Positions 10,720 to 27,100 of a stretch of 64,000 bases of DNA are shown piece after piece. The translations under genes and the position numbers were made by a program. How positions within the stretch are numbered: position 1 is the first letter of the stretch; each line of letters starts with the position of its first letter. Source of the DNA: Myxococcales bacterium (GTDB taxonomy: Bacteria > Myxococcota_A > Polyangia > Nannocystales > Nannocystaceae); the NCBI GenBank assembly GCA_020633295.1, contig JACKDW010000006.1, positions 334,181-398,180 of the forward strand. Direction: 5' to 3'. The notes beneath the pieces were generated by a model. The model made no database searches. It had not been told where the DNA came from and saw nothing but the letters and a program-made list of their open reading frames with translations.

Positions 10720-11679
10720 TCAGGCGCGCCACGGCGACGGCGCGTCCGCGGGCAGCAGCCCGACCTCGCGACCGCGGCGCAGCAGCTCGACGATCGCGGC
10801 GCGCCCCTCGGCGCCCAGCGACGACGAGTGCTCGTTGACGTAGAGCGCGATGTGCTGGCGACAGACCTCGGGGTCCATCTCCTGCGCGTGCGCGCGGATC
10901 ATCTCGGCGGGCGCCGAGGGGTTCGCCCACGCGTGCTCGATCGAGCGCCGCAGGCCGTCCTCGACGCGGTGAGTTGTCTCAGAGGACAGATCGCGTGAGG
11001 CCGCGATGATCCCCAGCGGCAGCGGCAGCCCGGTGTCGCGCTCCCACAGCGCGCCGAGGTCGGCGAGGAGCTCGAGCCCGAAGCTCGGGTACGTGAAGCG
11101 GCTCTCGTGGATGATGACGCCGGCGTCGCAGCGCCCGTCGGCGACCGCCGGCATGATCTCGTCGAAGCGCATGGGCACCACCGTCTCGGGGGAGAGCGCG
11201 CCCGGCGGGGCGAAGATCCGCAGCAGCAGGTGCGCCGTCGTCAGCGATCCGGGGATCGCCACGCGCCGACCGGCGAGCGCCGCCAGCGAGCCGAGGCCCG
11301 CGCCCCGGCGCTGAACGACGAGCGGACCGCAGCCGCGCCCGAGCGCCGCGCCGCTGTCGAGCGCGCCGTAGCGCCCCGTCAGCAGCCCGAACACGTGCAC
11401 GCTCAGCTTCGTGATCGGCAGCGGCGCGCCGGCGCCCGGCAGCGCCAGCGCCCGGCGGTTGAGCGCCTCGATGTCCTCCATCACCGACGCGAACCGGAGC
11501 CCCGGCACGGGCACGGCGCCCGAGACGAGCCCGTGGAACATGAAGGTGTCATTGGGACAGGGCGAGAAGCCCAGCTCGAGCTCGCCTGCATCGCGTGCGC
11601 GCGTCACGAGCGTGGGGCTACCTCGAGCGCGTCGGCGCGGCCAGCCGCGCGACCGCGCGTCGCGCCTCGCCCCACCCAC
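10720..11679 (-). CDS. mqnD: Menaquinone biosynthesis via futalosine, MqnA/MqnD family (probably 1,4-dihydroxy-6-naphthoate synthase)
   Basis: LELGFSPCPNDTFMFHGLV N-terminal motif typical of the VitK2_biosynth (MqnA/MqnD) family. Adjacent to mqnB as in Streptomyces. Confidence 0.65.
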   Translation of the reverse strand: MGGARRDARSRGWPRRRARGSPTLVTRARDAGELELGFSPCPNDTFMFHGLVSGAVPVPGLRFASVMEDIEALNRRALALPGAGAPLPITKLSVHVFGLLTGRYGALDSGAALGRGCGPLVVQRRGAGLGSLAALAGRRVAIPGSLTTAHLLLRIFAPPGALSPETVVPMRFDEIMPAVADGRCDAGVIIHESRFTYPSFGLELLADLGALWERDTGLPLPLGIIAASRDLSSETTHRVEDGLRRSIEHAWANPSAPAEMIRAHAQEMDPEVCRQHIALYVNEHSSSLGAEGRAAIVELLRRGREVGLLPADAPSPWRA

Positions 11680-12366
11680 TCAGACGTCGCCGGGTCCGGG
11701 GCTGCGGTGGGGGCGGAGGACGCCCTGCGTCACGAGCTCCACCACCGCGTCCTGCACGGCCGCGACCGCGCGCTTGAGATCCCAACCTCCGCGGGCGCGA
11801 TCGCCGGTCCGGTTGCTCACCGCGCGCAGCTGCACCATCGGGATTCCGCGGCGCTGGCACACGTAGGCGACGGCGGCGCCCTCCATGCTCTCGACCCGCG
11901 CCCCCGCCCGCGTCGCCAGGGCGCGCGAGCGCCCGTCGGTGCCGCTGCAGGTGCTGACCGTCGCGCCGTCGACCGCCGGCACGCCGAGCGCGGCGGCGGC
12001 GGCGACCGTCAATTCAGGATCCGCCGTGAACGGGCCGGTGACCGGGAAGCCGAGCCGCGCGAGCTCGGTGAAGCCGCGCTCGTGCTCGACCCCCTCATCC
12101 GCGAGCTGATCGCGACCCACGAGGCACACGTCGCCGACCTCGAGGGCCGGCCCGTCGCCGCCGTGGGCCGGCGGGTACACGCCGCAGATCCCGAACAGCA
12201 CCACCGCCGCGGGACGTCGCGCGGCGAGCTGCTCCACGAGGCCCGCGCACGCGGCGACCTTGCCCACGCCGATCGCCGCGAGCGCGACGTCTCCGCCGCG
12301 CGCCCAGGCCCGGAGCCGACGCGCGAGCCCCTGCCCCTCGACCTCCGCCGCGTGCACCAGCAGCAT
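11680..12366 (-). CDS. mqnB: Futalosine hydrolase (PNP_UDP_1 / MTA-SAH nucleosidase family)
   Basis: Nucleosidase motifs AIGVGKVAAC, VVLFGICG and SMEGAAVAYVC. Operon partner of the MqnA/D-family gene. Confidence 0.7.
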   Translation of the reverse strand: MLLVHAAEVEGQGLARRLRAWARGGDVALAAIGVGKVAACAGLVEQLAARRPAAVVLFGICGVYPPAHGGDGPALEVGDVCLVGRDQLADEGVEHERGFTELARLGFPVTGPFTADPELTVAAAAALGVPAVDGATVSTCSGTDGRSRALATRAGARVESMEGAAVAYVCQRRGIPMVQLRAVSNRTGDRARGGWDLKRAVAAVQDAVVELVTQGVLRPHRSPGPGDV

Positions 12367-12668
12367 CCCGCCCTACGTACCACGGGCGACTGTCGCGCGG
12401 CTCGACGTGAGGGTTACCACGCGCAGGGCGCAGTTGACCTCGCGGCGCGTGGCGAGCTCGCTGCGGGAGCGCTCGGACCCGGCGTCGAGGAGACGCCCGC
12501 AGGACCGCGCAAACGCTTTCGCGTTGGCTTGCACGGGCGCCTGCGATATTGAGGCAGCCGCGCAGGCCCCTCCGCCCCACCGCGGCGCGAGCCGCCTGAC
12601 GCCAGCATGAGCCGCTCGAATGCTGTTCGGCGGCATCCCGGGGTTCACGAGAGACGACCGCTGACACG

Positions 12669-13346
12669 ATGAACGACCGCAAGACCGCCGCCTTTTTTCG
12701 CGCCGAGGGGACCGTGCTCAAGCGCGGCGTGCTCGCGGCCTCGGCCTACCTCGCCGGCAACGCGCAGAAATTCGGTGAGCGCGCGCTCCGGCTCGGGTTC
12801 GTCGCCATGGCCGCGCCGCTGCACGGCCTGCTCGGGCAGAACGACCGCACGCTCGCGACGCGCGTCGCCAACCTCGCGTTCCGCGGGATGACCGAGGACC
12901 GCATCGCCGAGCTCAGCGAGGAGTACGCCCGCGACATCCTCCAGCACAACATCCTCGACCAGGGCGTCGAGCTGATGAAGCGAGCGCGCCGCGAGGGCCA
13001 CCGCGTCGTGCTGCTCTCGGACAACATCCGCCTGATCATGGAGCCGCTGCTGCCGCACCTGCGGCTCGTCGACGAGCTGGTCTGCAACACGCTCGAGTTC
13101 AGAGGCGGCGAGGCGACGGGCAAGCTCCAGGATCCAGTGATCGGCGGCCACGGGTGGAAGCCGTGGCTCGAGCGCTACGCGGCCGAGCATGATCTCGACC
13201 TGTCCCAGAGCGTCGCCTACGGCGCGCACGGGCCCGATCTTCTGCTGCTCTCGACCATCGGGCGCCCGTGCGCGGTCAACCCGGACTACACGCTGCGTCG
13301 CGCCGCGCGCGAAGCTGACTGGCCGGTGATCGAGTACCGCGAGTAG
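12669..13346 (+). CDS. HAD-superfamily subfamily IB hydrolase (SerB/phosphatase-like); first gene of the lipid locus
   Basis: Haloacid dehalogenase-like layout with the motif-I aspartates early in the N-terminus (MNDRKTAAFFRAEGTV, atypically spaced). VVLLSDN is motif II. C-terminal GxHGPD-like motif. 29 nt upstream of the reductase gene. Confidence 0.65.
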   Translation: MNDRKTAAFFRAEGTVLKRGVLAASAYLAGNAQKFGERALRLGFVAMAAPLHGLLGQNDRTLATRVANLAFRGMTEDRIAELSEEYARDILQHNILDQGVELMKRARREGHRVVLLSDNIRLIMEPLLPHLRLVDELVCNTLEFRGGEATGKLQDPVIGGHGWKPWLERYAAEHDLDLSQSVAYGAHGPDLLLLSTIGRPCAVNPDYTLRRAAREADWPVIEYRE

Positions 13347-13375
13347 GCGGTCGACAGCTCCCACGGGGTGAATCC

Positions 13376-15073
13376 ATGGCGAACCCAATCTCGATCCGTC
13401 GCACTTACGCCGGCCGTCACGTGCTGCTGACGGGCGCGTCCGGCTTCCTCGGCAAGGTCTGGCTCGTGATGATGCTCGACCTCGTGCCCGAGATCGGCCG
13501 GGTCTACGTGATCCTGCGCAAGAAGGCGCTGCAGCCGGCGCGCGAGCGGTTTGAGAAGATCGTCGCGAGCTCGCCCGCGTTCGCGCCGCTGCACGATCGC
13601 TACGGCGCCGACCTCGGCCGCTTCCTCGTCGAGCGCGTCGAGCTCGTCGACGGCGACCTCGCCGAGCCCGACCTCGGCCTCGACCCGGCGGTCGCGCGCC
13701 AGCTCGAGCGCGACGTCGACCTCGTCATCCACTGCGCCGGCCTCGTCGACTTCGATCCCGACATCCGCGACGCGCTCACGACCAACGTCGACGGCACCGA
13801 GCACATCGCCAACTTCGTCGAGCGCAGCGATCACGCGGCGCTGCTGCACATCTCGACCTGCTACGTCAGCGGCACGCGCAACGGCGAGATCCCCGAGCAG
13901 CTGATCCCGGACTACGCGCCCGACGGGCACCCCTTCGACACCGAGCTCGAGCGCCGCGACGCCCGGGCCTCGATCGAGCGGATCCTCGCCGACCACGAGG
14001 GCGACGAGAAGGAGACCGAGCTGCACAAGCAGGCGCTCCAGCAGATCCGCGACCGCGGGCTCAACCCCAACAACTCGATGCTGCTGCGCAACATCACGCG
14101 CCGGCTCAAGCGCCAGTCGATCAAGAACGCGATGATCGAGGAGGGCCAGCGGCGCGCGTACAAGCGCGGCTGGCCCAACATCTACACCTACTCGAAGAGC
14201 ATGGCCGAGTCCCTGCTGATCGCGCGCAAGGACCGGATCCCGCGGATGTCGATCCTGCGCCCGGCGATCGTCGAGAGCTCGATGAGCTACCCGTTCCCGG
14301 GCTGGAACCAGGGCTTTAACACCTCGGGGCCGCTCTCGTACGTGCTCGGCACCTGGTTCCGCCACCTGCCCGCGCGCAACAACAACCCCTTCGACGTGAT
14401 CCCGGTCGACTACGTCGCGCGCGCCATCACGATCGCCGGCGCCGCGCTGCTCGAGGGCTGCGCCGCGCCCGTCTACCAGTGCGGGACGTCGGACATCAAC
14501 CGCCTGACGGTCGAGCGCGCCTGCGAGCTGACCGCGCTCGCGCACCGTCGACACCTGCGCGATCGCGGCTCGACGCCGATCGAGCGCGTGCTGCTCTCGC
14601 GCTGGGACGCGGTCGCCAGCGACCCCGAGCACCTGCTCTCGACCGAGAACATCAGCTCGGTCGCCGACGGCTTCGCCAAGCTCATGCGCGGGCTGCCGAA
14701 GCGGTGGCCGACCGGGCTGCATCGCGGCGCCGAGCGCTGGGCGAAGAAAGCGGACAGCGTGCGCGACAAGCTCAACACGATCGACCGCATGCTCACGCTC
14801 TACCTGCCCTTCATCTACGAGAACCACTTCGTGTTCCACTCGAAGGCGCTGCGCGAGCACGAGATCGAGGAGCCCGAGTTCGTCGTCGACACCACCGACA
14901 TCGACTGGCGCGTCTACTGGATCGGCATCCACATGCCCGGCCTGCGCAAGTGGTGCTACCCGCTGTTCGAGGGCAAGACGCCGGAGAAGTACGTGCCCAA
15001 GATCCCGTTCTCGCTCCCCCAGCAGCCAGCCCAGGCGCCGAGCGGCGCGGGGCTGCGCGGAGAGGCCCGCTGA
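13376..15073 (+). CDS. Fatty acyl-CoA/ACP reductase (NAD_binding_4 plus C-terminal sterile/FAR_C domain), alcohol-forming FAR-like
   Basis: VLLTGASGFLGKVWLVMML Rossmann motif. YTYSKSMAESL (YxxxK). C-terminal ~150 aa resembles the FAR male-sterility C-domain. Confidence 0.8.
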   Translation: MANPISIRRTYAGRHVLLTGASGFLGKVWLVMMLDLVPEIGRVYVILRKKALQPARERFEKIVASSPAFAPLHDRYGADLGRFLVERVELVDGDLAEPDLGLDPAVARQLERDVDLVIHCAGLVDFDPDIRDALTTNVDGTEHIANFVERSDHAALLHISTCYVSGTRNGEIPEQLIPDYAPDGHPFDTELERRDARASIERILADHEGDEKETELHKQALQQIRDRGLNPNNSMLLRNITRRLKRQSIKNAMIEEGQRRAYKRGWPNIYTYSKSMAESLLIARKDRIPRMSILRPAIVESSMSYPFPGWNQGFNTSGPLSYVLGTWFRHLPARNNNPFDVIPVDYVARAITIAGAALLEGCAAPVYQCGTSDINRLTVERACELTALAHRRHLRDRGSTPIERVLLSRWDAVASDPEHLLSTENISSVADGFAKLMRGLPKRWPTGLHRGAERWAKKADSVRDKLNTIDRMLTLYLPFIYENHFVFHSKALREHEIEEPEFVVDTTDIDWRVYWIGIHMPGLRKWCYPLFEGKTPEKYVPKIPFSLPQQPAQAPSGAGLRGEAR

Positions 15074-16218
15074 TGACGATCTTCTTGACTGGCAGCAACG
15101 GCTACCTCGGCTCCTACGTCGCCCACGAGCTGCTGCGGCGCGACCCGAACACGCGGCTCGCGCTGCTCGTGCGCGCCAAGAGCCCCGCGCACGCCGAGCA
15201 GCGCCTGTGGCAGGCGTGGCAGCTGCACATGGAGTTCGAGCCGTTCATCGACCTCGTGCGCTCGCGCTGCGACATCTACCTCGGCGATCTCACGGCGCCG
15301 GAGCTCGGCCTCGAGGCGAGCGCGCGCGACCGCCTGATCAAGAGCATGAGCTCGGTGCTGCACGTCGCCGCGTCGCTCAACCGCAAGTCGTCCAAGGCGT
15401 GCTTTAACGTCAACCTGCGCGGCACCCTCTCGGTCATCAAGCTCGCGCGCGCGGCCGCCGATCACCACGGCCTGCGGCGCTTCAGCGACATCTCGACCAC
15501 CGCGGTCGCCGGCCACCGCCAGAGCGAGCTCGTCGCCGAGCACGACATGATCGACTGGTCGCGCAGCGACTACGACCCCTACGCGCGGACCAAGAAGTTC
15601 TGCGAGCACATGATCCACGAGCTGCTGCCGGACGTGCGCTGCACCGTGTTCCGCCCCAGCACCGTGCTCGGCGACAGCCGCTTCCCCGAGACCACGCAGT
15701 TCGACATGACGCGCGCGTTCGTCACGCTCGTCAAGATGCCCGTGCTGCCGCTCGCCGCCGACTGGCGCCACGACGTCGTGCCCGCCGACTACGTCTGCGA
15801 CGGCATCGTCACCGTCCACCAGAGCGACGCGCCCGCGCACGACAGCTACAACCTCAGCGCCGGCGACGCGTCGCCCGACTACCAGACGATCATCGACACG
15901 CTCGTCGCCGCCGGGCTCCCGCGCCGGCGCTTCGCGCCCTGGCTCGCCAAGCCCTTCGAGCTCACGGTCGAGGGGCTGATGGCGACCCCGCGCGGCTGGG
16001 GCGTCTCGCTGCCGGCCTCGCTGATGAAGGTGTTCTGGCCCTACCTGACCTTTAATACAGTGTTCGACAACAGCCGGGTCGTCGCGGCGCTCGGGGGCAG
16101 GCGCCCCGCGCCCTTCACCGACTACGCCTACGGGCTGTTCCGCTTCGCCAGCGAGGGCAACTTCACGTACCCGCACAAGCCCTGGCCCGAGGCCGTCAGC
16201 CCGCGGAAGGTCGCATGA
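15073..16218 (+). CDS. NAD-dependent reductase (NAD_binding_4 / thioester-reductase-like SDR), second reductase
   Basis: IFLTGSNGYLGSYVAHELL Rossmann motif. YARTKKFCEHM (YxxxK). Start ATG overlaps the upstream stop (TGATG). Confidence 0.7.
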   Translation: MTIFLTGSNGYLGSYVAHELLRRDPNTRLALLVRAKSPAHAEQRLWQAWQLHMEFEPFIDLVRSRCDIYLGDLTAPELGLEASARDRLIKSMSSVLHVAASLNRKSSKACFNVNLRGTLSVIKLARAAADHHGLRRFSDISTTAVAGHRQSELVAEHDMIDWSRSDYDPYARTKKFCEHMIHELLPDVRCTVFRPSTVLGDSRFPETTQFDMTRAFVTLVKMPVLPLAADWRHDVVPADYVCDGIVTVHQSDAPAHDSYNLSAGDASPDYQTIIDTLVAAGLPRRRFAPWLAKPFELTVEGLMATPRGWGVSLPASLMKVFWPYLTFNTVFDNSRVVAALGGRRPAPFTDYAYGLFRFASEGNFTYPHKPWPEAVSPRKVA

Positions 16219-17711
16219 CAACATCCAACGAAGTCCCGCGCCCGCGCCGGAAGCGACGCAGGCGCGGCCTGTTTGACTCCCTCAAGGAGGCGCTCGATCC
16301 CGATCGCGCGCTCATGGCGAGCGTCGACGCGCTGATCGAGGCGGTCGCGGTCAAGCACGCGCTCAACGTCGACCAGGAGCGCTGGGCGCCCGGCAAGCCG
16401 CTGAAGCTGCTGCTCACGGGGCACGTCGGCACGCGCAACACCGGCGCCGACGTGCGCGTCGGCGAGATGATCCGGCAGATGCGTCACGTCATCGGCGACG
16501 ACGACCTGCAGCTGACGATCAGCACCTCGGACCCGAGGTGGTCGAGCGGCTACTTCCGCTCGGTCCACCAGGTGCTCCTGCCCCAGGTGTTCCCGCCGTT
16601 TCTGTACCGCGAGTGCCCCAAGCACCACGGCGTGATCGCGTGCGAGGGCTCGATGTTCAAGTCGAAGTTCGCCAGCGCGCTGACCTGCTTCATGGCGGGC
16701 TCGCTGGGGATGGCCGCGGCCGAGCGCAAGCTCGGCGTCGGCTACGGCGCCGAGGCCGGGAGCATGACGCCGGCGCTGCGCAGCTTCGTCAAGCGCCACT
16801 GCAAGGACTCGCTGGTGATGTGCCGCAACCTGCCGTCGCGCGACGTGCTCGGCAAGCTCGGCGTCCGCACCACGCACGGCGCCGACACGGCCTGGACCTT
16901 CGAGCCGGCGCCGCCCGCCGTCGGCCAGAAGCTGCTGCGCGAGGCCGGCTGGGACGGCGAGAAGAAGGTCCTGGCGATCGCGCCGATCAACCCGTTCTGG
17001 TGGCCGGTCAAGCCCGACCTCGTCAAGGCGGCCGCGCGCACCTTCGGCGGGCAGTACCGCGTCGAGCACTACAAGTCGATCTACTTCCACGCGGCCTCGT
17101 CGAAGATCGACCAGGCGCTCGACGACTACCTCCAGGGCATCGCCGACGCGGTCAACGCGTTCTGCCGCGACCGCGACGTGTTCGTGGTGCTCATCGGCAT
17201 GGAGAAGCTCGACCGCCGCGCGGCCGAGCGCCTCAACCCGCTGCTCGATCGCCCGGCGCCGCTGTTCATCAGCGACACCTACGACATGTTCGAGATGATC
17301 AGCGTGCTGCGCAGCTGCGCCATGCTCGTCAGCTCGCGCTTCCACGCGATCGTCTGCTCGATGCCCGGCTTCGTCGCGTCGGCCGGCGTGACGATGGACG
17401 AGCGGATCCGCAACATCATGAACGACCGCGGCACGCCCGACCTGTTCCTCGAGGTCGACGACCCCAACCTCGGCGACAAGCTGCTGCAGATCCTCCACAA
17501 GCTGCACGACGAGCGCGACGCGCTGCGCGACACCATCGGCAAGGCGATCCCCGCGCAGCTCGAGCTCATGGGTCAGATGGGCCTCGACTTCATGGACGAG
17601 GTGTGCCGCGTCTACCCCGAGTTCCCGCGCAAGCAGCTGCCGCGCACGTGGGAGGCCCACCTCCCGCCGATGCCCCCGAACGTGCAGGGCATCCTGGAGC
17701 GCTACGGATGA
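16215..17711 (+). CDS. Polysaccharide pyruvyl transferase-family (PF04230-like) protein
   Basis: C-terminal motif LVSSRFHAIVCSM resembles the pyruvyl-transferase RxHAxI signature. ATGA overlaps at both ends. Function in lipid context unknown. Confidence 0.5.
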   Translation: MTTSNEVPRPRRKRRRRGLFDSLKEALDPDRALMASVDALIEAVAVKHALNVDQERWAPGKPLKLLLTGHVGTRNTGADVRVGEMIRQMRHVIGDDDLQLTISTSDPRWSSGYFRSVHQVLLPQVFPPFLYRECPKHHGVIACEGSMFKSKFASALTCFMAGSLGMAAAERKLGVGYGAEAGSMTPALRSFVKRHCKDSLVMCRNLPSRDVLGKLGVRTTHGADTAWTFEPAPPAVGQKLLREAGWDGEKKVLAIAPINPFWWPVKPDLVKAAARTFGGQYRVEHYKSIYFHAASSKIDQALDDYLQGIADAVNAFCRDRDVFVVLIGMEKLDRRAAERLNPLLDRPAPLFISDTYDMFEMISVLRSCAMLVSSRFHAIVCSMPGFVASAGVTMDERIRNIMNDRGTPDLFLEVDDPNLGDKLLQILHKLHDERDALRDTIGKAIPAQLELMGQMGLDFMDEVCRVYPEFPRKQLPRTWEAHLPPMPPNVQGILERYG

Positions 17712-18517
17712 CCGAGGACGCGAGGATCGGCGACGTGCTCGGGTGGACCTTCCAAGACGGCGTGTACGAGCTGACGCTCGACCAGGCGCCGTGCAACGAG
17801 ATCGGCGCGCGGATGCTCGAGGCGCTCGAGGGCTTCCTCGACAGCATCACGCCGAACCTCGACAGCGCCCACGCGCTCATCATCCGCAGCGCGCTGCGCA
17901 GCGGCTTCTGCGCTGGCGCCGACCTGCGCGCGCTCTACCGCGGCCTGCAGGAGGCCGAGTCGGCGAGCGGCCGCCGCCAGCTCGCGCAGTTCATCGACCG
18001 CATCCACGCGGTCATGGATCGCCTCGACACGCTCCCGCTCGTCACCGTCGGCGTGATCAACGGCATCTGCTTCGGCGGCGGCCTCGAGCTCGCGCTGACC
18101 TGCGACATCCTGATCGCCGAGAAGTCCGCGCGCTTCGCCTTCCCCGAGCTGCGGCTCGGCATCGTGCCTGGCTTCGGGGGCATCCCCCGGCTCAAGCGCG
18201 AGGTCGGCAACGCGGTCGTCCGCGACCTGCTGCTGACCGGCCGCAGCGTCAACGCCCGCAAGGCGCAGGCGGTCGGCCTCGTGAGCCAGCTGGTGCCCGT
18301 GGGCGAGGGCCTCACGGCCGCGCGCGCGCTGGCCAAGCAGGCCGCGAAGTTCGACCCGACCGCGCGCGTCGCCGCCAAGCGCTTCATCAAGCCGCTCCCA
18401 CGCGCGGAGCTGCACGAGGAGAAGCGCCTGTTCCTCGAGCTGGCGAGCCGGCCCACGCTCATGGAGGCGCTCAAGCGCTTCGTCGAGAGCGAGGACGTCC
18501 GCCCCTACCTGCCCTGA
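17708..18517 (+). CDS. Enoyl-CoA hydratase/isomerase (crotonase fold)
   Basis: FCAGADL oxyanion motif, GICFGGGLELALTCD, and FPELRLGIVPGFGG. Confidence 0.85.
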   Translation: MTEDARIGDVLGWTFQDGVYELTLDQAPCNEIGARMLEALEGFLDSITPNLDSAHALIIRSALRSGFCAGADLRALYRGLQEAESASGRRQLAQFIDRIHAVMDRLDTLPLVTVGVINGICFGGGLELALTCDILIAEKSARFAFPELRLGIVPGFGGIPRLKREVGNAVVRDLLLTGRSVNARKAQAVGLVSQLVPVGEGLTAARALAKQAAKFDPTARVAAKRFIKPLPRAELHEEKRLFLELASRPTLMEALKRFVESEDVRPYLP

Positions 18518-18539
18518 TCAAGCCCCCGCGAGCAGCACC

Positions 18540-18767
18540 ATGACCGCAACAAAACTGATCGAGCTGGCCGCCCGTCGCTTCGGCGCCGACCCCCGCCAGC
18601 TCAAGCCCGCAGACGACATGTTCGAGACGCTCGGCATCGACAGCTTCCAGGCCGCCGACCTGATGACCGAGGTCGAGCTCGAGTTCGACGTCGAGATCCC
18701 CGACTACGAGCTGCAGGGCATCAAGACGTTCCAGGCGCTGGCAGACAAGATCGACGCGAGGCGCTGA
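18540..18767 (+). CDS. Acyl carrier protein (dedicated, non-FAS)
   Basis: 75-aa four-helix ACP-like protein with LGIDSFQAADL (phosphopantetheine-attachment Ser in a DSF variant of DSL). Confidence 0.7.
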   Translation: MTATKLIELAARRFGADPRQLKPADDMFETLGIDSFQAADLMTEVELEFDVEIPDYELQGIKTFQALADKIDARR

Positions 18768-20503
18768 TGCTCGACTTCTCCCGCCTGCCGTCCATCGGCG
18801 CCGCCCTGCGCGACTCGACCGTCGCGTACAAGAGCCACGTCGCGCTGATCGAGGCCGACCGTCACCGCGAGAACGGGCGCTGGACCTACCGCGAATTTCG
18901 CGACGAGTCCGAGCGCTTCGCCGCGCTGCTCGCCCGCCGCGGCGTCGAGCCGGGCGATCGCTGCGCGATCCTGATGCAGAACCAGGCCAAGTGGCTGATC
19001 AGCGCCACGGGCGCGATGTGGACGGGCTGCGCGCTCGTGCCGCTCGACTACAAGCTGACCGCGCGCGAGCAGCTCGAGCTGATCGGCCTGTGCCGCCCGC
19101 GGGTGCTCGTCACCGAGTACCACAGCTGGCATCAGCTCTGCCGCGAGGAGCAGCGCCACGTCCTCGAGCGCACGCTCGTGCTCGTCACCGAGCCGCCGCG
19201 CGACGCCGAGCTCGGGCCCGCCAGCGAGTGGCGATTGCCGGAGCGCGCAGACGACTTTCGCTACCACGAGCCGGCGCGCGACGACGTCGCGTGCATCGTC
19301 TACTCCTCCGGCACCGGCGGGCGCCCCAAGGGCTGCCAGCTGACCCACGAGGCCTACCTGTGTCAGGCCGAGGTGCTCGGCAACATGTACCCGATGGACG
19401 AAGGCGACCGGTTCTTCTCGGTCCTGCCGACCAACCACGCCATCGACTTCATGTGCGGCTTCCTGCTCCCGCTGCTCATGGGCGGCGCGGTCGTCCACCA
19501 GCGTACGCTGCGCTCGGAGTTCCTCGCGTCGACCATGCAGCGCTACGGCGTCACCCAGATCGCGCTGGTGCCTCGCCTGCTCAAGGCCATGAAGGAGAAG
19601 ATCGAGGAGAACCTCGACGACCTCCCGAAGTGGCAGCGCGCGGTCGTCGACGGGCTGATCGAGGCCAACGTCCGCGCGACCCGGCGCGCGCCCAACCACG
19701 CGCTCTCGCGCCGCCTGCTGCGGCCGATCCACGACCGCTTCGGCGGCAAGCTGCGCCTCATCGTCACCGGCGGCGCGTTCTGTGAGCGCGAGACCGCGGA
19801 GTTCTTCAACCGCCTCGGCTTCCCGCTCGCGATCGGCTACGGCCTGACCGAGGCCTGCACGGTGCTCACGCTCAACGACCTGAAGCCGTTCCGGGCCGAC
19901 AGCGTGGGCGCGCCCGTCGAGGGCGTCGAGCTCGAGCTGCGCGACAAGAACGCGGCCGGCGTCGGCGAGGTCTGGGTGCGCGCGCCGACCGTCATGAAGG
20001 GCTACCTCGATCAGCCCGAGCTGACCGAGGAGGCGATCGTCGACGGTTGGCTGCGGACCGGCGATCTCGGGGTCATCGACGCCGCCGGGCACCTCAAGCT
20101 CGTCGGGCGGGCCAAGAACATGATCGTCACCTCGGGCGGCAAGAACGTGTACCCCGAGGACATCGAGGCCGCGTTCACCGAGCTCGACGGCTGCGAGGAG
20201 CTGTGCGTGTTCGCGGCCAACTACATCTGGCCGACCGGCTCGCTCACCGGCGAGCAGCTCATCGTCGTCCTGCGCCGCAAGGCCCCCGGCCCGCGCGAGA
20301 CCGGCGAGTCGCTCGACGAGGCCATGATCGCCGATCTCCAGCGCCGCAACCGGCGGCTCTCGGACTTCAAGCGCCTGTCCGCCTTCGTGCGCTGGGACGA
20401 GGAGTTCCCCCGCACCGCCTCGCTCAAGATCAAGCGTCAGGCGCTGGCGGTGCAGCTGCGGGAGCAGCTCACGCGCGAGGAGGCGCTCCAGGAGCTCCGC
20501 TGA
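18767..20503 (+). CDS. AMP-dependent synthetase/ligase (fatty acyl-AMP / acyl-ACP or acyl-CoA ligase)
   Basis: AMP-binding signature IVYSSGTGGRPKG and YGLTE; TGDLG. Start ATG overlaps the ACP stop (TGATG). Confidence 0.85.
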   Translation: MLDFSRLPSIGAALRDSTVAYKSHVALIEADRHRENGRWTYREFRDESERFAALLARRGVEPGDRCAILMQNQAKWLISATGAMWTGCALVPLDYKLTAREQLELIGLCRPRVLVTEYHSWHQLCREEQRHVLERTLVLVTEPPRDAELGPASEWRLPERADDFRYHEPARDDVACIVYSSGTGGRPKGCQLTHEAYLCQAEVLGNMYPMDEGDRFFSVLPTNHAIDFMCGFLLPLLMGGAVVHQRTLRSEFLASTMQRYGVTQIALVPRLLKAMKEKIEENLDDLPKWQRAVVDGLIEANVRATRRAPNHALSRRLLRPIHDRFGGKLRLIVTGGAFCERETAEFFNRLGFPLAIGYGLTEACTVLTLNDLKPFRADSVGAPVEGVELELRDKNAAGVGEVWVRAPTVMKGYLDQPELTEEAIVDGWLRTGDLGVIDAAGHLKLVGRAKNMIVTSGGKNVYPEDIEAAFTELDGCEELCVFAANYIWPTGSLTGEQLIVVLRRKAPGPRETGESLDEAMIADLQRRNRRLSDFKRLSAFVRWDEEFPRTASLKIKRQALAVQLREQLTREEALQELR

Positions 20504-20597
20504 GGACAGCCGCCCCGATGCCCGCCCGGCGCGGTACCCTGGGCGCGCCACGGACGACCGCGTCTGCACGTGGTCGGCGCCACGAGGACACACGACG

Positions 20598-21539
20598 ATG
20601 GCCAACGACACCACCCGCGGAGACCGACGCTACGTCGCCATCTTCAACCCGGCCGCCGGCGGCGGGCGCTGCGGCGCGCGGGCGCCCGCGGCGATCGAGC
20701 GGCTGCGCGGCGCCGGGCTCGAGATCGAGGTGCGCGAGACCGCGGCCGCCGGCGACGGCGAGCGCATCACCCGTGAGGCGGTCCAGTCCGGCGCCCGGAA
20801 CTTCATCGCCATCGGCGGCGACGGCACCACCTACGAGATCATCAACGGGCTGTTCTCGCCGGCGTCCGGCGACGAGCTGCCGCCGCCCATCGCCGAGCCC
20901 GTCAGCGTCGGCTTCCTGCCCATGGGCACCGGCAACTCGTTCCTGCGCGACTTCAGCGACCGCGGCGCGGACTACTCGATCGACGCGCTCGCCGCGGGCG
21001 CGCGGCGCCCCTGCGACGTCATCCGCGTCCGCCACACCCGCGGCGTCCTGCACTTCATCAACATCTTCAGCATCGGCTTCGTCGCCGACGTCGCCGCGCT
21101 GCGCAACAACCGGTTCTCCGCGCTCGGCGAGTTCGGCTACATCGTCGCCGTCGTCGCCAAGGTCGCCGCGCTCGCGCCCACGCGCTTCCCGATGGCGCTC
21201 GACGACGGCCCGCGCGATCGCGCGCCGGTCACCTTCATCTCGATCAACAACAGCAAGTTCACCGGCGGCAAGATGATGATGGCGCCCGGCGCCGAGACCG
21301 GCGACGGCAAGCTCGACGTCATCCGCGTCGGCGAGATGGGCCGGCTGTCGCTGCTGGCGACCTTCCCCAAGATCTTCAAGGGCACGCACCTCGAGCACCC
21401 GGCCGTCAGCGCCGTGCAGGCCCGCGAGATCCACTTCGAACTCGAGGGCGAGCTCGACGTCATGATCGACGGCGAGATGCTGCGAATTCAGCCGACGCAC
21501 CTCGAGGTCGTCCCGGAGGCCGTGAATGTCATCGCCTGA
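20598..21539 (+). CDS. Lipid kinase, DAGK catalytic domain (YegS/sphingosine kinase-like)
   Basis: YVAIFNPAAGGG...NFIAIGGDGTTYEIINGL matches the DAGK_cat GGDG motif. Confidence 0.75.
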   Translation: MANDTTRGDRRYVAIFNPAAGGGRCGARAPAAIERLRGAGLEIEVRETAAAGDGERITREAVQSGARNFIAIGGDGTTYEIINGLFSPASGDELPPPIAEPVSVGFLPMGTGNSFLRDFSDRGADYSIDALAAGARRPCDVIRVRHTRGVLHFINIFSIGFVADVAALRNNRFSALGEFGYIVAVVAKVAALAPTRFPMALDDGPRDRAPVTFISINNSKFTGGKMMMAPGAETGDGKLDVIRVGEMGRLSLLATFPKIFKGTHLEHPAVSAVQAREIHFELEGELDVMIDGEMLRIQPTHLEVVPEAVNVIA

Positions 21540-22470
21540 ACCCGCTCCCAACCCGCCCAAGGGCCAGCCAGAGGACAAGCTCGAGGACAAGCTCGAGGAC
21601 AAGCTCGAGGACAAGCCCGCGCGAAGCCGCCCGGCGCCGCTGCCCCTGCGCGCGCTCAAGGGCGCGGTCGAGATCGCGCACTCGACCGCGGTCTGGTCCG
21701 CGTCCTTCGCCGTGATGAGCGGCGTCGTCGTGTTCGGCGGCGGGCTCAGCCCCGTCATCCCGTTCCGCAAGACCCACACCTATATCGGCGGGCCCGGGAT
21801 GGGTCTGTGCCTGCGGCTCGCCGCGCGCACGCTCGACATCACCTACCACGAGGACTTCGATCCCGAGCGTCGCGGCGTGTTCATGCAGAACCACGTCAAC
21901 CTCATGGACGCCCACGCCGCCTGCGCCGCGATCCCGCACGCGTTCTGCGGGCTGATGAACGCCTGGCAGTTCAAGATCCCCGTCTACGGGCAGATCATGC
22001 GCCTCGCCGACGGCATCGCGGTGCACCCCGGCAAGGCCGGTCGCTTCAAGCAGGTCGCCCAGGACGCGCAGGATCGCGCGGCCAAGGGCATCTCGATCCT
22101 CGCCTTCCCCGAGGCCCACCGCACGCGCACCGGCGACGTCCAGCCGTTCAAGCGCGGCGTGTTCTTCATGGCCCGCGACGCCGGCCTGCCGATCATCCCG
22201 CTGTGCACGCACGGGATGTTCAACCTGATGCGCAAGGGCTCGATGCGGATCCGCCGCTCGCACGTCAAGATCTTCGTCGGCCCGCAGATCGAGACCAAGG
22301 GGCTGAACAAGGGGCAGCTCTCCGAGCTGATCACGCGCACCCACGCGGTCGTCGCGAGCTTCTCGGAGACCGGACAGGTGCCCCAGGACGCCGTGCGTCG
22401 CCTCCAGCGGCTCCGCGAGGACATCCCCGGGGGCGAGTCGTCGCGCGACGGAGACCGCGACGTCGGCTAG
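21526..22470 (+). CDS. 1-acyl-sn-glycerol-3-phosphate acyltransferase family (PlsC/AGPAT), with N-terminal (EDKL)x4 repeat
   Basis: HxxxxD motif HVNLMD. FPEAHRT (motif III, FPEGTR-like). Overlaps the kinase gene by 14 nt. Confidence 0.75.
   Translation: MSSPEPAPNPPKGQPEDKLEDKLEDKLEDKPARSRPAPLPLRALKGAVEIAHSTAVWSASFAVMSGVVVFGGGLSPVIPFRKTHTYIGGPGMGLCLRLAARTLDITYHEDFDPERRGVFMQNHVNLMDAHAACAAIPHAFCGLMNAWQFKIPVYGQIMRLADGIAVHPGKAGRFKQVAQDAQDRAAKGISILAFPEAHRTRTGDVQPFKRGVFFMARDAGLPIIPLCTHGMFNLMRKGSMRIRRSHVKIFVGPQIETKGLNKGQLSELITRTHAVVASFSETGQVPQDAVRRLQRLREDIPGGESSRDGDRDVG
21571..21618. repeat. 12-bp tandem repeat gaggacaagctc x4 (encodes EDKL x4)
   Basis: Read directly from the sequence. Confidence 0.8.
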
Positions 22471-22493: not shown

Positions 22494-22865
22494 TCAGCCG
22501 CGCTGCTCAGCCGCCGCGCGCTCGCGCTCCAGGATCACGCACGAGGCCGCGAGCGCCTCGAGAATCGCGTTCACCCGCGCGTTCGCGTTGGCGACCGGGC
22601 CGCGCTTGGCGTCCTTCTCGAGCGCCGCGCACAATTCGACGACCGTCTTGACGCCGACGTTCGCCGAGCTGCCCTTGAGCCTGTGCGCGGCGTTCCCGAG
22701 CTTGGCCCAGTCCCCCGACGCGACCGCGTCGCGGAGGTTCTTGGAGTCGACCTCGCTCTCCTCGAGGTAGGCGCCGACGATCTCGACGACGAGACTCGGC
22801 TCGCCCGGCATCGAGTATTCGTCCAGCTCGCGCAGCGAGCTGAGGTCCACGACCACGTTCGGCAT
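22494..22865 (-). CDS. Histidine phosphotransfer (Hpt) domain protein, stand-alone
   Basis: AHRLKGSSANVGV contains the phospho-accepting His in the canonical HxxKG context. Start taken at MPNVVVDL. Confidence 0.65.
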   Translation of the reverse strand: MPNVVVDLSSLRELDEYSMPGEPSLVVEIVGAYLEESEVDSKNLRDAVASGDWAKLGNAAHRLKGSSANVGVKTVVELCAALEKDAKRGPVANANARVNAILEALAASCVILERERAAAEQRG

Positions 22866-23225
22866 CCGGCCCCCTCCAATCGAAGATACCACCGGGCTCG
22901 CGCGTGAAGCCAGCGACCCGGGGTCGCGCGCGTGAGAACCCGCGGCCCGCCTCGCCGCGCGCGATGAAACCCGACCGCGCGCGGCCTCGCCTGTCCCGCG
23001 CGCGACGCCGTGTCGCGCCGCGCTGGGCGGAGACGCCCGCTCGCCCGCGCACGCGCGTCGCGAGCTCGCCGATCGCTCGCCGTCACCGTCGCCCTCTCGT
23101 CGTCACGACGCGCGCGGTCGCGCCTCGAGCCCGTGAAACCGGGCGGTTTTCGCCTCAGTCATATCGATGTCGCGCGGGTGGTACACGGGATCCCGAGGCA
23201 CACACCGCGCCGACGGAGAGGACCG

Positions 23226-24119
<894 letters not shown>

Positions 24120-24135
24120 ACCGGAGGACACGTCG

Positions 24136-27100
24136 ATGTTCCGCGAGTTCTTCCGCTTCGAAAGCGGGTTCCGGTTCCGGAGCCTGATGTTCTGGATCTT
24201 CTCCCTGCTGTTCTTCGGCCTCACGCTGCTGGTGACCGGCTGGGACGAGACCTTCCTGCCGGGCGCCGGCGGCAAGATCGCGCGCAACGCCCCGTTCGCG
24301 ATCTCGATCTTCTTCATTATTATCAGCCAGCTCGGGATGTTCGTCGCGGCGGCCTTCGTCGCCAACTCGGTCAGCCGCGACGACGCGCTCAAGACCGACT
24401 CGCTGTTCTTCTCGAGCCCCGTCAGCCGCCACGGCTACCTCGCCGGGCGCTTCCTGGGCTCGCTCTTGCCGGCGATCGTGATCGTCGTGTTCGCGGCGCT
24501 GGGCCACATGCTCGGCTCGATCGGCCCGCTGCACCCGCCCGAGAAGCTCGTCCCGATCACGCTCGGGCCCTACGCGGCCGCGATCGGGCTGTTCGTGATC
24601 CCCAACTTCTTCGTCATGGGCGCGCTCGCGTTCACGCTCGCTACCCTGACGCGCCGGGTGCTCAACGCGTACATCGGGCTCATCGTCGTGTTCGTGCTCG
24701 TGTTCCTGGCCGACAGCGCGCTCAGCGATCTCGACTACCGGACCACGCTCGCGCTCATCGATCCCTTCGGCGGCACCGCGTGGAGCTACGTCACCAAGTA
24801 CTGGACGGTCGCCGAGAAGAACACGCAGGTCGTGCTGCTCGACAGCTACCTGCTGCTCAACCGCGCGATCTGGATCGGCGTCGGCGTCGCGCTGCTCGCG
24901 TTCACGCACGCGCGCTTCCGCATGCAGATCGCCGGCGGCGGCAAGCGCCGCAAGCCGCCCGCGCCCGAGGTCACCGAGGCGCCGAGCCGCGCGGCCAACG
25001 TGCCGGTGCCGAAGGCCGCGCTCGACTTCTCGGCGCGCGCCCAGCTCGCGCAGCTGCTGAGCCAGACCTGGCTCGAGCTGCGCTGGGTCACGCGCCGCAT
25101 CGGCTTCGTCGTGCTCGTCGGCTTCGGCATGTTCAACGTGCTCGCCGGCGTCTACCTGCAGAGCCGTCAGGCCTACGCCACGCCGATCTGGCCGGTCACG
25201 CGCTTCGTGCTCGAGACCGTCAGCGGCGGCTTCAGCGTGTTCCTGCTCGCGATCATCACGGTCTACTCGGGGCAGATGGTCTGGCGCGAGCGCGAGGCCA
25301 AGATGGGCCAGATCTTCGACGCGACGCCGATCCCGACCTGGATCCCGCTCGCGTCCAAGGTCTTCGCGCTGATGCTCGCGGTCGTCGTGCTGCTGCTCGC
25401 GAGCATGGTCGCGGGCGTCTCCTACCAGCTCGCCAGCGGCTTCCTCGAGGTCGAGTTCGGGCTGTTCCTCAAGGGCCTGCTGCTCATCCAGTTCCCCGGC
25501 TGGGCCGAGCTGGTCGTGCTCGCGTTCGCCGTCCAGGTGCTGGTCAACCACAAGTACCTCGGGTTCGGCGTGATGGTCCTGTACTACATCGCGCTGGCGA
25601 TCCTCCCGAACGTCGGCGTCGAGCACAACCTGCTGCTGTTCGGGCAGACGCCGCCGGCGCCGTACTCGGACATGAACGACTACGGGCACTTCCTGACGCC
25701 GTTCTTCTGGTTCAACCTCTACTGGCTGTGCGCGATCGCGATCCTCGGGCTCGTCTCGAGCCTGTTCTGGGTGCGCGGCACCGACACGCGCTTCCGCCTG
25801 CGCGCCCGCGAGGCCCGGCGCCGCGTGACGCCGGCCCACAGCGTGTTCCTGATGACGATGGTCACCTGCTTCATCGGCAGCGGCGCGTACATCTACTACA
25901 ACACCAACGTCCTCAACACGTTCAAGACCAGCGACCAGCAGGAGCAGGAGCAGGTCGACTTCGAGCGCAAGTACAAGAAGTACGAGGACGCCCCGCAGCC
26001 GCGCCTGACCGCGGTCAAGCTCGACGTCGACATCTACCCGGACCAGCGCTACGTGCACGCGCGCGGCACGATGACGCTGGTCAACAAGACCGACGCGCCG
26101 ATCGCCGAGCTCCACCTGATCATCGACCCGGAGATCGAGCTGCTCTCGCTCAGCGTGCCCGAGTCCGCGCGCACGCTCCACGACGAGGCGCTCGGCTTCT
26201 CGATCTACGCGCTGCCCGAGCCGCTCGCGCCCGGGCAGACGCTGCCGCTCGAGTTCGAGACCAAGCGTCACAACCGCGGCTTCACCAACGGGCGCGGCAA
26301 CATCAACGTCGTGCACAACGGCACCTTCTTCCACGGCGGCGAGATCGTGCCGAGCGTCGGCTACAACCGCGACTTCGAGATCGCCGACGACGAGAAGCGC
26401 CGCGAGTATGACCTCCCCGAGCGCCCGCGCATGCTCCCGGTCGACGACATGGCCGCGCGGATGAACACCTACATCTCGACGGAGGCCGACTGGATCGACT
26501 TCGAGACCACGGTCAGCACCGTCGCCGACCAGGTCGCGATCGCGCCGGGCTACCTGCAGAAAGAGTGGACCGAGGACGGGCGGCGCTACTTCCACTACAA
26601 GATGGACGCGCCGATCCTGAACCTCTACGGGTTCCTCTCAGCGCGCTTCACCGTCGTGCGCGACAGCTGGAAGGACGTCTCGATCGAGGTCTACCACCAC
26701 GCGCCGCACGACTACAACGTCGAGAAGATGATCCAGTCGGTCAAGGACTCGCTCGAGTACTACACCGCGAACTTCAGCCCCTACCAGCACCGGCAGGTGC
26801 GGATCATCGAGTTCCCGCGCTACCGCAACTTCGCGCAGTCGCTGCCCAACACGATCCCCTACTCCGAGGGCATCGGCTTCATCGCCAAGCTCGTCGACCC
26901 CGACGACATCGACTACGTGTACTACGTCACCGCCCACGAGATCGCGCACCAGTGGTGGGCGCACCAGGTCATCGGCGGCAACGTCCAGGGCAGCACGCTG
27001 CTGGTCGAGAGCATGGCGCAGTACTCCGCGCTGATGGTGATGGAGCAGAAGTACGGGCGCGACAAGATGAAGCGCTTCCTGCGTCACGAGCTCGACTCGT

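Follow-up and report, generated by a model that had tools for sequence, protein, structure and literature searches.

The nine genes that lie together in a 64,000-nucleotide stretch of Nannocystaceae DNA (the window) raise the question of whether they are a split form of the myxobacterial ether-lipid enzyme ElbD, as a preliminary description had proposed, or encode a pathway of their own, and what lipid this pathway would make. Gene calls and Pfam searches showed that positions 12669–22470 were filled by nine genes (g1–g9), all on the plus strand, and the Pfam search agreed with the domain content first described for all nine. The successive junctions from g1 to g9 measured +29, -1, -4, -4, +22, -1, +94, and -14 nt. 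Five of the eight overlapped and the remaining gaps were 22–94 nt, in agreement with the translational coupling claimed for a dedicated lipid operon. Public gene calls made independently on contigs that were identical or 94% identical gave the same products of 565, 381, 498, 269, and 75 aa. A long GTG-initiated ORF from 14479 was rejected as g3, the start of which was placed at 15073. An ORF at 17743–18543 was rejected as the crotonase gene, being an off-frame artefact rich in Arg, Pro, and Ala; the true crotonase gene, g5, started with the ATG at 17708, overlapping the g4 stop codon. Upstream, the locus was bounded by divergent futalosine-pathway (mqn) genes on the minus strand (10720–12366), and downstream by a convergent Hpt gene, also on the minus strand (22494–22892). 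Within the divergent intergenic/promoter region from the mqnB-like gene to g1 (12367–12668, plus strand), one stretch was conserved with the closest relative, locus L088, and contained an imperfect palindrome, CGCAAACGCTTTCGCGTTGG, at about 12507–12527. Searches of this intergenic region for a sigma-70 consensus and for an Rfam family found neither. These results indicated that g1–g9 form a single operon dedicated to a lipid pathway.

Sixty-two related loci from the Myxococcota (Nannocystis, Paraliomyxa, and Polyangiales), Bradymonadia, Bdellovibrionota, and Acidobacteriota were collinear, without inversion or permutation, and 23 of them had the full nine-gene set. The synteny check proposed among other Myxococcota thus found the same-order operon, and found it in at least four phyla; the lineages that keep this order included predatory bacteria. 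The consensus order was g1-g2-g3-g4-[ACSL]-g5-g6-g7-g8-g9, where the tenth gene, encoding a long-chain acyl-CoA synthetase (ACSL), was present in most related loci and absent from the window; no other conserved flanking gene was found around the related loci. Acidobacterial versions of the cluster had an inserted FabH gene. A relative of g4 was present in at least 595 species-representative genomes, unlinked g4 was found among housekeeping genes, and thousands of protein clusters came from soil and marine metagenomes. Split clusters in other genomes were divided into g1-g2-g3, g4 alone, and ACSL-g5-g6-g7 with further genes, and an isolated operon elsewhere consisted of g4, an ECH-ligase fusion, and an ACP, without a FAR. 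Members were also fused to one another: a HAD-like-FAR (g1-g2 type) fusion occurred in about 29 acidobacterial loci, an ECH-ligase (g5-g7 type) fusion in protein P0128, and a g4-ACSL fusion in one case. The proposal that the genes are unrelated neighbours from ordinary fatty-acid metabolism, adjacent by accident, can practically be dismissed. Housekeeping members do exist in each of the gene families, but no member reached a housekeeping-enzyme equivalog cut-off, five junctions had overlapping starts and stops, members are fused in relatives, and collinearity in 62 loci over four phyla makes the operon order more than chance. Scattered, non-syntenic homologues of fatty-acid metabolism were rejected as contradicted by the synteny data.

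The first gene, g1 (12669–13346; HAD PF12710, 79.7 bits), encoded a HAD-IB-fold protein related to ElbB, with 30% identity over its full length to an ElbB-like HAD protein carrying DVDGT. The motif I of HAD phosphatases, DxDx[T/V] with a nucleophilic Asp, was not found in g1: FFRAEGT stood in place of DxDGT, so that the nucleophile was lost, and motif IV read GAHGPD where ElbB-like proteins keep GDSxxD. Nearly all of 55 g1 orthologues had R-[AV]-E-G-[TS] at motif I, and a few from Terriglobia had SADGG. Because the nucleophile was lost and the protein is fused to the FAR in Acidobacteriota, g1 is probably not a phosphatase and probably serves as a non-catalytic FAR partner; its earlier designation as a HAD-IB phosphatase was right about the family but not about the activity, the catalytic motif of which is missing. 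The product of g2 (13376–15073; NAD_binding_4, 186 bits) was of the FAR type, as first assigned, with the Rossmann GxxGxxG and YxxxK motifs in the NAD_binding_4 domain and a Sterile-like C-terminal region. It aligned end to end with the FAR and Sterile half of ElbD-type proteins with 27–33% identity over approximately 560 aa. The PF03015 Sterile profile exceeded its cut-off in acidobacterial orthologues (L033), but not in g2 itself.

A motif check showed intact motifs in g2, g3, g5, g6, g7, g8, and g9. The g3 protein (15073–16218; NAD_binding_4, 147 bits) retained YxxxK and scored 121.8 bits against TIGR01746, under the cut-off of 213. Its best solved relatives were the R domains of MxaA, M. 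tuberculosis Nrp, and CARs, and its similarity to the ElbE-like SDR was no more than remote. These similarities suggested a stand-alone terminal thioester reductase of the carrier-protein-dependent R-domain type; some carrier-dependent R domains catalyze a four-electron reduction to alcohols. The g5 protein (17708–18517; ECH_1, 135 bits) had both catalytic Glu residues, in GGGLE and FPE, and is a predicted crotonase-fold enoyl-thioester hydratase. The best PDB relatives were short-chain hydratases, headed by 3-hydroxypropionyl-CoA dehydratase (acryloyl-CoA/3-hydroxypropionyl-CoA hydratase). A dedicated acyl carrier protein with GIDSF and Ser35 was encoded by g6 (18540–18767; PP-binding, 46 bits), and an adenylate-forming ligase with every core motif intact, which would load this ACP, by g7 (18767–20503; AMP-binding, 247 bits). 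Among 1.84 billion representatives, the nearest non-orthologous relatives of g7 were the ElbD-type A domains of FAR-Sterile-AMP-PP-AT proteins (34–36% identity); the fused ElbD-type proteins formed a distinct and more distant set, with 33–37% identity. The g8 protein (20598–21539; DAGK_cat and YegS_C) scored 140.9 bits against TIGR00147, over the cut-off of 118.65, and had GGDG at residue 73, which points to a soluble lipid kinase of the YegS/BmrU/DgkB type. The g9 protein (21526–22470; Acyltransferase PF01553, 65.3 bits) had a hydrophobic N-terminal segment and the HX4D (HVNLMD) and FPE (FPEAHR) motifs; it scored under the AGP_acyltrn subfamily cut-off, showed weak local similarity to the ElbD-type AT domain, and is a putative PlsC/AGPAT-type acyltransferase.

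The remaining protein, g4 (16215–17711), has a GT-B fold and matched the PF04230 (PS_pyruv_trans) profile with 39.4 bits, over the curated cut-off of 25.3. Across the family R204, R375, H377, and R397 did not vary; the first three were identical in Escherichia coli WcaK, where R397 aligned with a Lys. The motifs common to g4 and WcaK were GS.F, R204, DTAW, R375-x-H377, and a basic residue at +20. Mutagenesis of CsaB has identified R148, R306, H308, and K328 as PEP-binding residues, and the g4 residues matched these by motif and spacing rather than by direct alignment, suggesting that the PEP-binding residues are conserved. The fold, Pfam family, and motifs are those of CsaB, WcaK, and Pvg1p; however, g4 was only about 20% identical to WcaK, fell well short of the equivalog cut-offs for CsaB and WcaK, was about 100 aa longer than these enzymes with additional N- and C-terminal helices, and is encoded within an operon for lipids, not polysaccharides. 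The surrounding genes, all for lipids and none for glycans, speak for an acceptor other than a sugar, and the 50% identity of g4 across phyla would fit a fixed small or lipid acceptor; a sugar repeat unit is very unlikely. In this cluster, C-O-C bond formation belongs to the family chemistry of g4 alone, which makes g4 the candidate enzyme for this step. ChtnH, a pyruvyl transferase for which ketalisation of a lipid 1,3-diol has been proposed in the chitinimine pathway, and the megapolipeptin pyruvyl transferase resemble g4, by description only, as PF04230 enzymes proposed to act on long-alkyl-chain hydroxyls in a lipid pathway, but they are accessory tailoring enzymes of Burkholderiales PUFA-synthase/PKS-NRPS clusters. 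MurA and EPSP synthase, the folds of which are unrelated to that of g4, offer a chemical analogy only: in their reactions the PEP carboxyvinyl group passes to an alcohol and an enol ether results, as is proposed for g4 with a mono-alcohol.

The Elb system of Myxococcus xanthus comprises elbB-elbE, with ElbD being a FAR-ACS-ACP-AT protein (MIBiG BGC0000871). For comparison we used metagenomic proteins of ElbD architecture with elbB/C/E-like neighbours, rather than the M. xanthus proteins. Both systems have a FAR with a Sterile-type C-terminus, an adenylating enzyme, an ACP, an AGPAT-type acyltransferase, and a HAD-IB protein, and a DAGK-type kinase gene often, as well as an AT gene, lies beside ElbD-type genes. 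In contrast, the ElbD activities were here divided among four genes (g2, g7, g6, and g9), of which g9 was marginally similar to the ElbD AT domain; three obligatory enzymes were additional (the thioester reductase g3, the pyruvyl transferase g4, and the crotonase g5); a second, ACSL-type ligase was usual in relatives of the present cluster; and g1 lacked the nucleophile, whereas ElbB-like proteins had DxDGT. Lar_N (ElbC) and epimerase-type SDR (ElbE) genes flanked ElbD-type genes in loci L081 and L082, and a tblastn search for both across the 64-kb window found nothing. On this sequence evidence the operon is a distinct, deeply conserved sister system of Elb and not merely a split ElbD. The label "split ElbD-type" holds in that g7, g2, and g1 are true Elb relatives, but fails in that they belong to a separate orthologous system without ElbC and ElbE and with g3–g5. 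The canonical elb cluster has been reported to be absent from Nannocystis, Polyangium, Sorangium, Enhygromyxa, and Sandaracinus, and the present cluster occurred in lineages so described. The case for a complementary distribution is weakened by some reports that homologues of elbD exist in every myxobacterial suborder.

The product of the operon is most likely a fatty-alcohol (ether-type) membrane lipid that has not been characterised previously. For its synthesis we tentatively favor, with rather less than even confidence, a PEP-based route, in which the enzyme families and their intact motifs are observed and we infer the order of the steps. The substrates are assigned from family chemistry, and the preliminary description was correct that the specific product cannot be deduced. 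In this route, g2, helped by the catalytically dead g1, would form a fatty alcohol by reduction of a long-chain acyl thioester; the acyl-CoA would come in most relatives from the in-cluster ACSL, which the window lacks. From phosphoenolpyruvate, g4 would then place a three-carbon carboxyvinyl or pyruvyl unit on the lipid hydroxyl, forming the C-O-C linkage (ether or ketal). The new carboxylate would be activated by g7 and put onto the private ACP g6, and the resulting 2-alkoxy-acryloyl thioester would be hydrated by the crotonase g5, for which the hydration of methacrylyl-CoA or acryloyl-CoA is a known analogue. Release by the carrier-dependent reductase g3 would yield a lipid alcohol resembling an alkyl glycerol, which g8 would phosphorylate and g9 acylate to a phosphatidic-acid-like ether lipid entering ordinary phospholipid synthesis. 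The presence of g8 suggests that the lipid alcohol is made unphosphorylated, since a kinase would otherwise not be needed; in mammals, alkylglycerol kinase functions in ether-lipid salvage. The route would resemble the eukaryotic route and salvage (FAR1, alkylglycerol kinase, and AGPAT) in the FAR-derived alcohol, alkylglycerol phosphorylation, and acylation, but there is no AGPS or GNPAT equivalent here and the ether bond would need another enzyme family. Where the cluster is broken into modules, the ligase and ACP go with g4 and g5 and not with the FAR. This pattern and the operon of g4, ECH-ligase, and ACP alone argue against the earlier suggestion that a fatty acid on the private ACP is reduced by the FAR.

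Several points weigh against the PEP-based route. Known ketal-pyruvyl transferases require a diol acceptor, and we know of no PF04230-fold enzyme shown to end at an enol ether. By this route the predicted alkyl glycerol would be of the 2-O-alkyl type, whereas the ether lipids known from myxobacteria are of the 1-O-alkyl type; in broken-up clusters g3 goes with g1-g2 and not with g5–g7; and the ElbD A domains nearest to g7 are reported to activate plain fatty acids. A possible but doubtful alternative would be functionally equivalent to Elb, with the same product class: g7 would load a fatty acid on g6, g2 and/or g3 would reduce it to an aldehyde or alcohol that becomes joined to a glycerol-derived backbone as a 1-O-alkyl ether, and g8 and g9 would finish the phospholipid, g4 and g5 only tailoring it, for example by adding a pyruvate ketal to a head group or to the free vicinal diol of 1-O-alkylglycerol. 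The homology of g7 and g2 to ElbD domains and of g1 to ElbB, the handling of fatty acids in vitro by the ElbD A domain and ACP, the DAGK and AT genes beside ElbD-type genes, and the occurrence of the cluster where canonical elb is reported missing all favor it. However, it names no ether-forming enzyme and leaves a crotonase with intact Glu residues idle, with no acyl dehydrogenase to supply an enoyl thioester; moreover, g4, g5, g6, and g7 can form an operon alone without the FAR, and g4 and g5 are conserved as strictly as the core genes, which is unusual for tailoring enzymes.

The diol requirement of the ketal formation typical of the g4 family would be satisfied if a 3-hydroxyacyl or 2-enoyl acid on the ACP were interconverted by g5 and reduced by g3 to a long-chain 1,3-diol, which g4 would close as a cyclic pyruvate ketal or which phosphorylation and acylation would turn into a diol phospholipid, with a second alkyl part coming from the FAR. 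Such a non-glycerol diol lipid or specialised metabolite is quite unlikely. The ChtnH-type ketalisation proposed for a lipid 1,3-diol is a precedent, 3-hydroxyacyl chemistry suits an ECH, an ACP, and a terminal reductase, and the FabH inserted in acidobacterial versions agrees with it, but the ketal would compete with the kinase and acyltransferase for the same hydroxyls, the FAR and ACSL would be left without a clear role, and the housekeeping context of unlinked g4 and the very wide spread of the cluster, with a g4 relative in at least 595 species genomes, resemble core membrane biology more than a specialised metabolite. It is highly improbable that g4 is a nucleotide-sugar glycosyltransferase and the product an ether or fatty-alcohol glycolipid: the GT-B fold is common to all pyruvyl transferases and hence does not by itself discriminate, the profile places g4 in PS_pyruv_trans and in no GT family, and the PEP-binding set of Arg, Arg-x-His, and basic residue, with DTAW and GS.F as in WcaK, is invariant.

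A literature search for a characterised operon with this gene content found none, as the preliminary description had expected, and a pyruvate-transferring enzyme is not known to have been linked previously to fatty-alcohol or ether lipids of this type. To our knowledge, no ether-forming enzyme of the Elb pathway has yet been identified and the PlsAR/Ger enzymes are confined to anaerobes. The origin of the ether bond in acidobacterial lipids, which underlie the brGDGT palaeoclimate proxies, is debated. The cluster is a concrete candidate for non-isoprenoid ether-lipid synthesis in aerobic bacteria. It is unlikely, though worth stating, that the operon represents a third ether-lipid mechanism, oxygen-independent in its chemistry yet compatible with aerobes, in which a pyruvyl-transferase-family enzyme forms the ether bond from a fatty alcohol and PEP and a glycerol-like backbone is then assembled on the spot out of PEP carbons by way of the ligase and ACP, crotonase hydration, and thioester reduction. 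[quoted passage not shown] Even with a product other than an ether lipid, the ten-gene pathway common to several phyla would still make a new lipid class and carry the chemistry of pyruvyl transferases beyond glycans into core lipid metabolism. A search for a cultured acidobacterium of known lipid composition bearing the cluster found none; cultured hosts of the cluster were Nannocystis exedens DSM 71, N. pusilla Na p29, and Paraliomyxa miuraensis SMH-27-4.

The nine genes, g1 to g9, all lay on the plus strand. Because the G+C content of the window was approximately 70%, mechanical ORF lists were full of shadow frames, as exemplified by a plus-strand ORF at 17743–18543 (266 aa), which was rejected as the crotonase gene because it was an off-frame, Arg/Pro/Ala-rich shadow without a family match; the true crotonase frame begins at 17708. 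Genes were called from Pfam and NCBIfam matches and from reading the junctions. This gave a HAD protein (g1, 12669–13346, 225 aa), two NAD_binding_4 proteins (g2, 13376–15073, 565 aa; g3, 15073–16218, 381 aa), a PS_pyruv_trans protein (g4, 16215–17711, 498 aa), an ECH_1 crotonase (g5, 17708–18517, 269 aa), an ACP (g6, 18540–18767, 75 aa), an AMP-binding ligase (g7, 18767–20503, 578 aa), a protein with DAGK_cat and YegS_C domains (g8, 20598–21539, 313 aa), and a PlsC-type acyltransferase (g9, 21526–22470, 314 aa). The successive junctions from g1 to g9 were +29, −1, −4, −4, +22, −1, +94, and −14 nt, and gene lengths were the same in public calls on contigs carrying an identical or 94%-identical g4. 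Upstream, two minus-strand genes of the futalosine (menaquinone) pathway diverged from the operon, one of the VitK2_biosynth (MqnA/MqnD) family at 10720–11679 and one of the PNP_UDP_1 family (MqnB-like) at 11680–12366; downstream, a minus-strand gene at 22494–22892 for a small, free-standing histidine phosphotransfer (Hpt) domain converged on its end. From the gene calls and these flanking genes, the limits of 12669–22470 proposed in the preliminary description proved to be exactly those of the operon. No NCBIfam equivalog was found for any of g1–g9, among which only a generic lipid-kinase subfamily exceeded its cut-off; g8 scored above the cut-off for YegS/BmrU lipid kinases.

More than 7000 homologous clusters at 90% identity were found for g4. 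Scanning a single genome for each species turned up at least 595 places encoding a g4 relative, from which the best 80 loci were taken with 10-kb flanks and searched with the nine proteins by tblastn. The order in these best 80 loci was g1-g2-g3-g4-[X]-g5-g6-g7-g8-g9, where X encodes a long-chain acyl-CoA synthetase-type protein of about 550 aa (AMP-binding plus AMP-binding_C_3) with 26% identity to g7. This order was seen in Nannocystis exedens, N. pusilla, Paraliomyxa miuraensis, and MAGs of Polyangiales and Sandaracinaceae, and also in Bradymonadia, Bdellovibrionota, and many Blastocatellia and Terriglobia. None of the 62 loci among the best 80 that carried both g4 and g5 was non-collinear, so that the synteny comparison suggested for Myxococcota bore out the operon there and beyond. 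All nine genes were present in 23 of these 62 loci and g1–g8 in 32; X occurred in 53; the window and nine other loci lacked it. All-against-all clustering of the flanking ORFs of the fetched loci revealed no further widely conserved gene except for an inserted FabH between g5 and g6 (13 acidobacterial loci) and a TetR between g8 and g9 (11 loci). From the uniform order and the lack of any other widely conserved flanking gene in these sequences, the conserved unit is an operon of nine to ten genes common to several phyla. Cultured Acidobacteria with the operon were also sought, so that its presence could be correlated with ether-lipid profiles in the literature; none was found among the 120 best acidobacterial g4 homologues, all of which came from metagenomes or MAGs.

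The g4 protein scored above the PF04230 cut-off. In an alignment of its family with the ketal-pyruvyl transferase WcaK of Escherichia coli, GS.F, R204, DTAW, and R375-x-H377 were kept, and R397 of g4 lay 20 residues past the His, at a position where WcaK has Lys. Mutagenesis of another ketal-pyruvyl transferase, CsaB, placed R148, R306, H308, and K328 (20 residues past H308) in its phosphoenolpyruvate (PEP) site. From the match between the g4 residues and this set, g4 is most probably PEP-dependent. Both crotonase glutamates were present in g5, the best solved relatives of which were short-chain hydratases, with 3-hydroxypropionyl-CoA dehydratase first. The best solved relatives of g3 were the reductase domains of MxaA, Nrp, and CAR, all with phosphopantetheine thioesters as substrates. 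The motifs of g2, g6, g7, g8, and g9 were intact. The g1 protein, previously described as a HAD-IB phosphatase, retained the HAD fold (full-length similarity to an ElbB-like HAD at 30% identity), but its motif I read FFRAEGT in place of the nucleophile motif DxDGT and its motif IV GAHGPD in place of GDSxxD, which argues against phosphatase activity. R-[AV]-E-G-[TS] was found in almost all of 55 g1 orthologues, whereas ElbB-like HADs retain DVDGT and GDSISD. In approximately 29 acidobacterial loci, g1 and g2 formed a single ORF of about 790 aa with a HAD-NAD_binding_4-Sterile architecture. The degenerate motifs and this fusion favor a non-catalytic role for g1, as a domain or partner of the fatty acyl reductase (FAR), over a role as a phosphatase.

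To compare the operon with the ether-lipid (Elb) system of Myxococcus xanthus, we used ElbD-type relatives found by search rather than the M. xanthus proteins. When g7 was compared with 1.84 billion representatives by full HMMER, orthologues came first (40–52% identity), followed by proteins of 1350–1640 aa that matched mid-protein at 33–37% identity. By Pfam, the latter were NAD_binding_4-Sterile-AMP-binding-PP-binding-Acyltransferase proteins, that is, of the ElbD architecture or truncated or split forms of it. Their neighborhoods mirrored the elbB-C-D-E layout of M. xanthus: one such locus (L082) had the order HAD, Lar_N, ElbD-type, and epimerase-type SDR, and another (L081) acyltransferase, ElbD-type, HAD, ADH, Lar_N, and DAGK. 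The g2 protein aligned with the FAR-plus-Sterile half of ElbD-type proteins over 560 residues at 27–33% identity (up to 293 bits), and the similarity of g9 to their acyltransferase domain was only local. There was no Lar_N or ElbE-like gene anywhere in the window, and neither a pyruvyl transferase nor a crotonase in the ElbD-type neighborhoods examined. Homology of ElbC to g4 was rejected, as the genes beside ElbD-type proteins belong to the Lar_N family and none there is of PS_pyruv_trans. From these domain matches and neighborhoods, the two systems share a FAR, a ligase, an ACP, an acyltransferase, a HAD-IB protein, and often a kinase, and differ in a variable module, which is Lar_N plus SDR in Elb and g3, g4, and g5 in the operon of the window.

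According to a 2025 survey, conservation of the canonical elb cluster does not extend to Nannocystis, Polyangium, or Sorangium, and Enhygromyxa salina and Sandaracinus amylolyticus lack the cluster; the g4 cluster was present in lineages related to these. A complementary distribution is only hinted at, because an older report placed elbD homologues in all suborders. Surveys of elb-like clusters report split elbD genes and adjacent DAG kinases; one of them, on sponge clusters, mentions no crotonase or pyruvyl transferase. Pyruvyl transferases are reported in PUFA-type lipid gene clusters. Full-text searches on pyruvyl transferase, ether lipid, FAR, crotonase, DAG kinase, enolpyruvyl, and brGDGT returned no description of the g1–g9 gene set; the statement that it matches no characterized operon thus held against a literature containing Elb and split-elbD clusters.

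In two loci (L008 and L010) the cluster was interrupted and split into [g1-g2-g3], [g4], and [X-g5-g6-g7...]. On one metagenomic contig, g4 stood in a compact operon together with genes for an ECH-ligase fusion protein and an ACP, and no FAR gene lay close by. In one MAG (L015, 9968–13150), a single 1060-aa ORF joined a g4-type pyruvyl transferase to an ACSL-type ligase, which could be a real fusion or an artefact of assembly or frameshift; tandem ACSL-ligase fusions also exist. These arrangements link the ligase and ACP with g4 and g5 no less closely than with the FAR. The neighbors of unlinked g4 genes were housekeeping genes (SecDF, RecJ, MiaB-like, PFK) and uninformative.

We tentatively propose a PEP-based route to an ether lipid, to which as a whole we assign somewhat less than an even chance. 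Within the cluster, g4 is the sole enzyme whose family chemistry makes a C–O–C bond, and its product, with a free carboxylate, would be a natural substrate of the ligase/ACP pair. If the acceptor were a mono-alcohol produced by the FAR, its reaction with PEP would give a 2-alkoxyacrylate, the ACP thioester of which could be hydrated by the crotonase to a 2-O-alkyl-glyceroyl thioester, by analogy with methacrylyl-CoA and acryloyl-CoA. The R-domain reductase g3 would then free the thioester as an alkylglycerol. Release of a free lipid alcohol would account for the requirement for a kinase, and the lyso-lipid formed in this way for the PlsC-type enzyme. The scheme gives every conserved gene a reaction typical of its family, with substrates that we infer throughout; the 2-O-alkyl lipid that it predicts is not the usual regioisomer. 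In its most specific form, with the ether bond made from fatty alcohol and PEP and the backbone built on the PEP carbons, it is unlikely. The core shared with Elb is also consistent with a pathway equivalent to Elb, with g4 and g5 serving only in lipid tailoring, a reading we consider rather doubtful; it would have to accommodate the close association of g4 and g5 with the ligase and ACP. A pyruvylated long-chain diol lipid, for which a parallel has been proposed for chitinimines, is quite unlikely, and glycolipid formation by a genuine glycosyltransferase very improbable.

Foreign genes were observed inside otherwise collinear operons in loci L024 (17349–19441), L033 (14181–16308), and L004 (16921–18579); the inserts were a defence-system-like pair of an AAA_15/AAA_21 ATPase and DUF4435, a PIN-domain gene beside FabH, and a GT87 glycosyltransferase (in Paraliomyxa). 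In the long-read assemblies of N. exedens and N. pusilla (L003 and L021), g3, g5, and the extra ligase gene looked frameshift-split, probably by sequencing indels rather than as pseudogenes.

Stretches of the g1 leader, at approximately 12503–12560 and at 12620–12668, were conserved in a 94%-related contig (L088), but not in Nannocystis. One of these stretches contained the imperfect palindrome CGCAAACGCTTTCGCGTTGG, which could be an operator. Neither a sigma-70 promoter nor a convincing terminator was found, and Rfam gave no riboswitch or known RNA in the leader or operon; a weak match to the Mycobacterium sRNA npcTB_6715 within the g7 coding sequence (19983–20145, plus strand) reached 23 bits, below the gathering score of 72, and was regarded as chance. 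Futalosine genes also adjoined the operon in the Nannocystis loci L001, L003, L021, and L088, and a VitK2_biosynth gene lay beside the minimal g4-ECH/ligase-ACP operon (L090). The product of MqnA is itself an enolpyruvyl ether. A functional tie was rejected, since the adjacency was confined to close Nannocystaceae relatives and one other contig; it is probably a lineage-specific neighborhood. Beyond the operon, at 23010–27729 on the plus strand, an ABC ATPase gene with an uncertain start was followed by a gene for a 1197-aa protein, in which several ABC-2 permease domains were joined to a C-terminal Peptidase_M1 domain in an unusual fusion.
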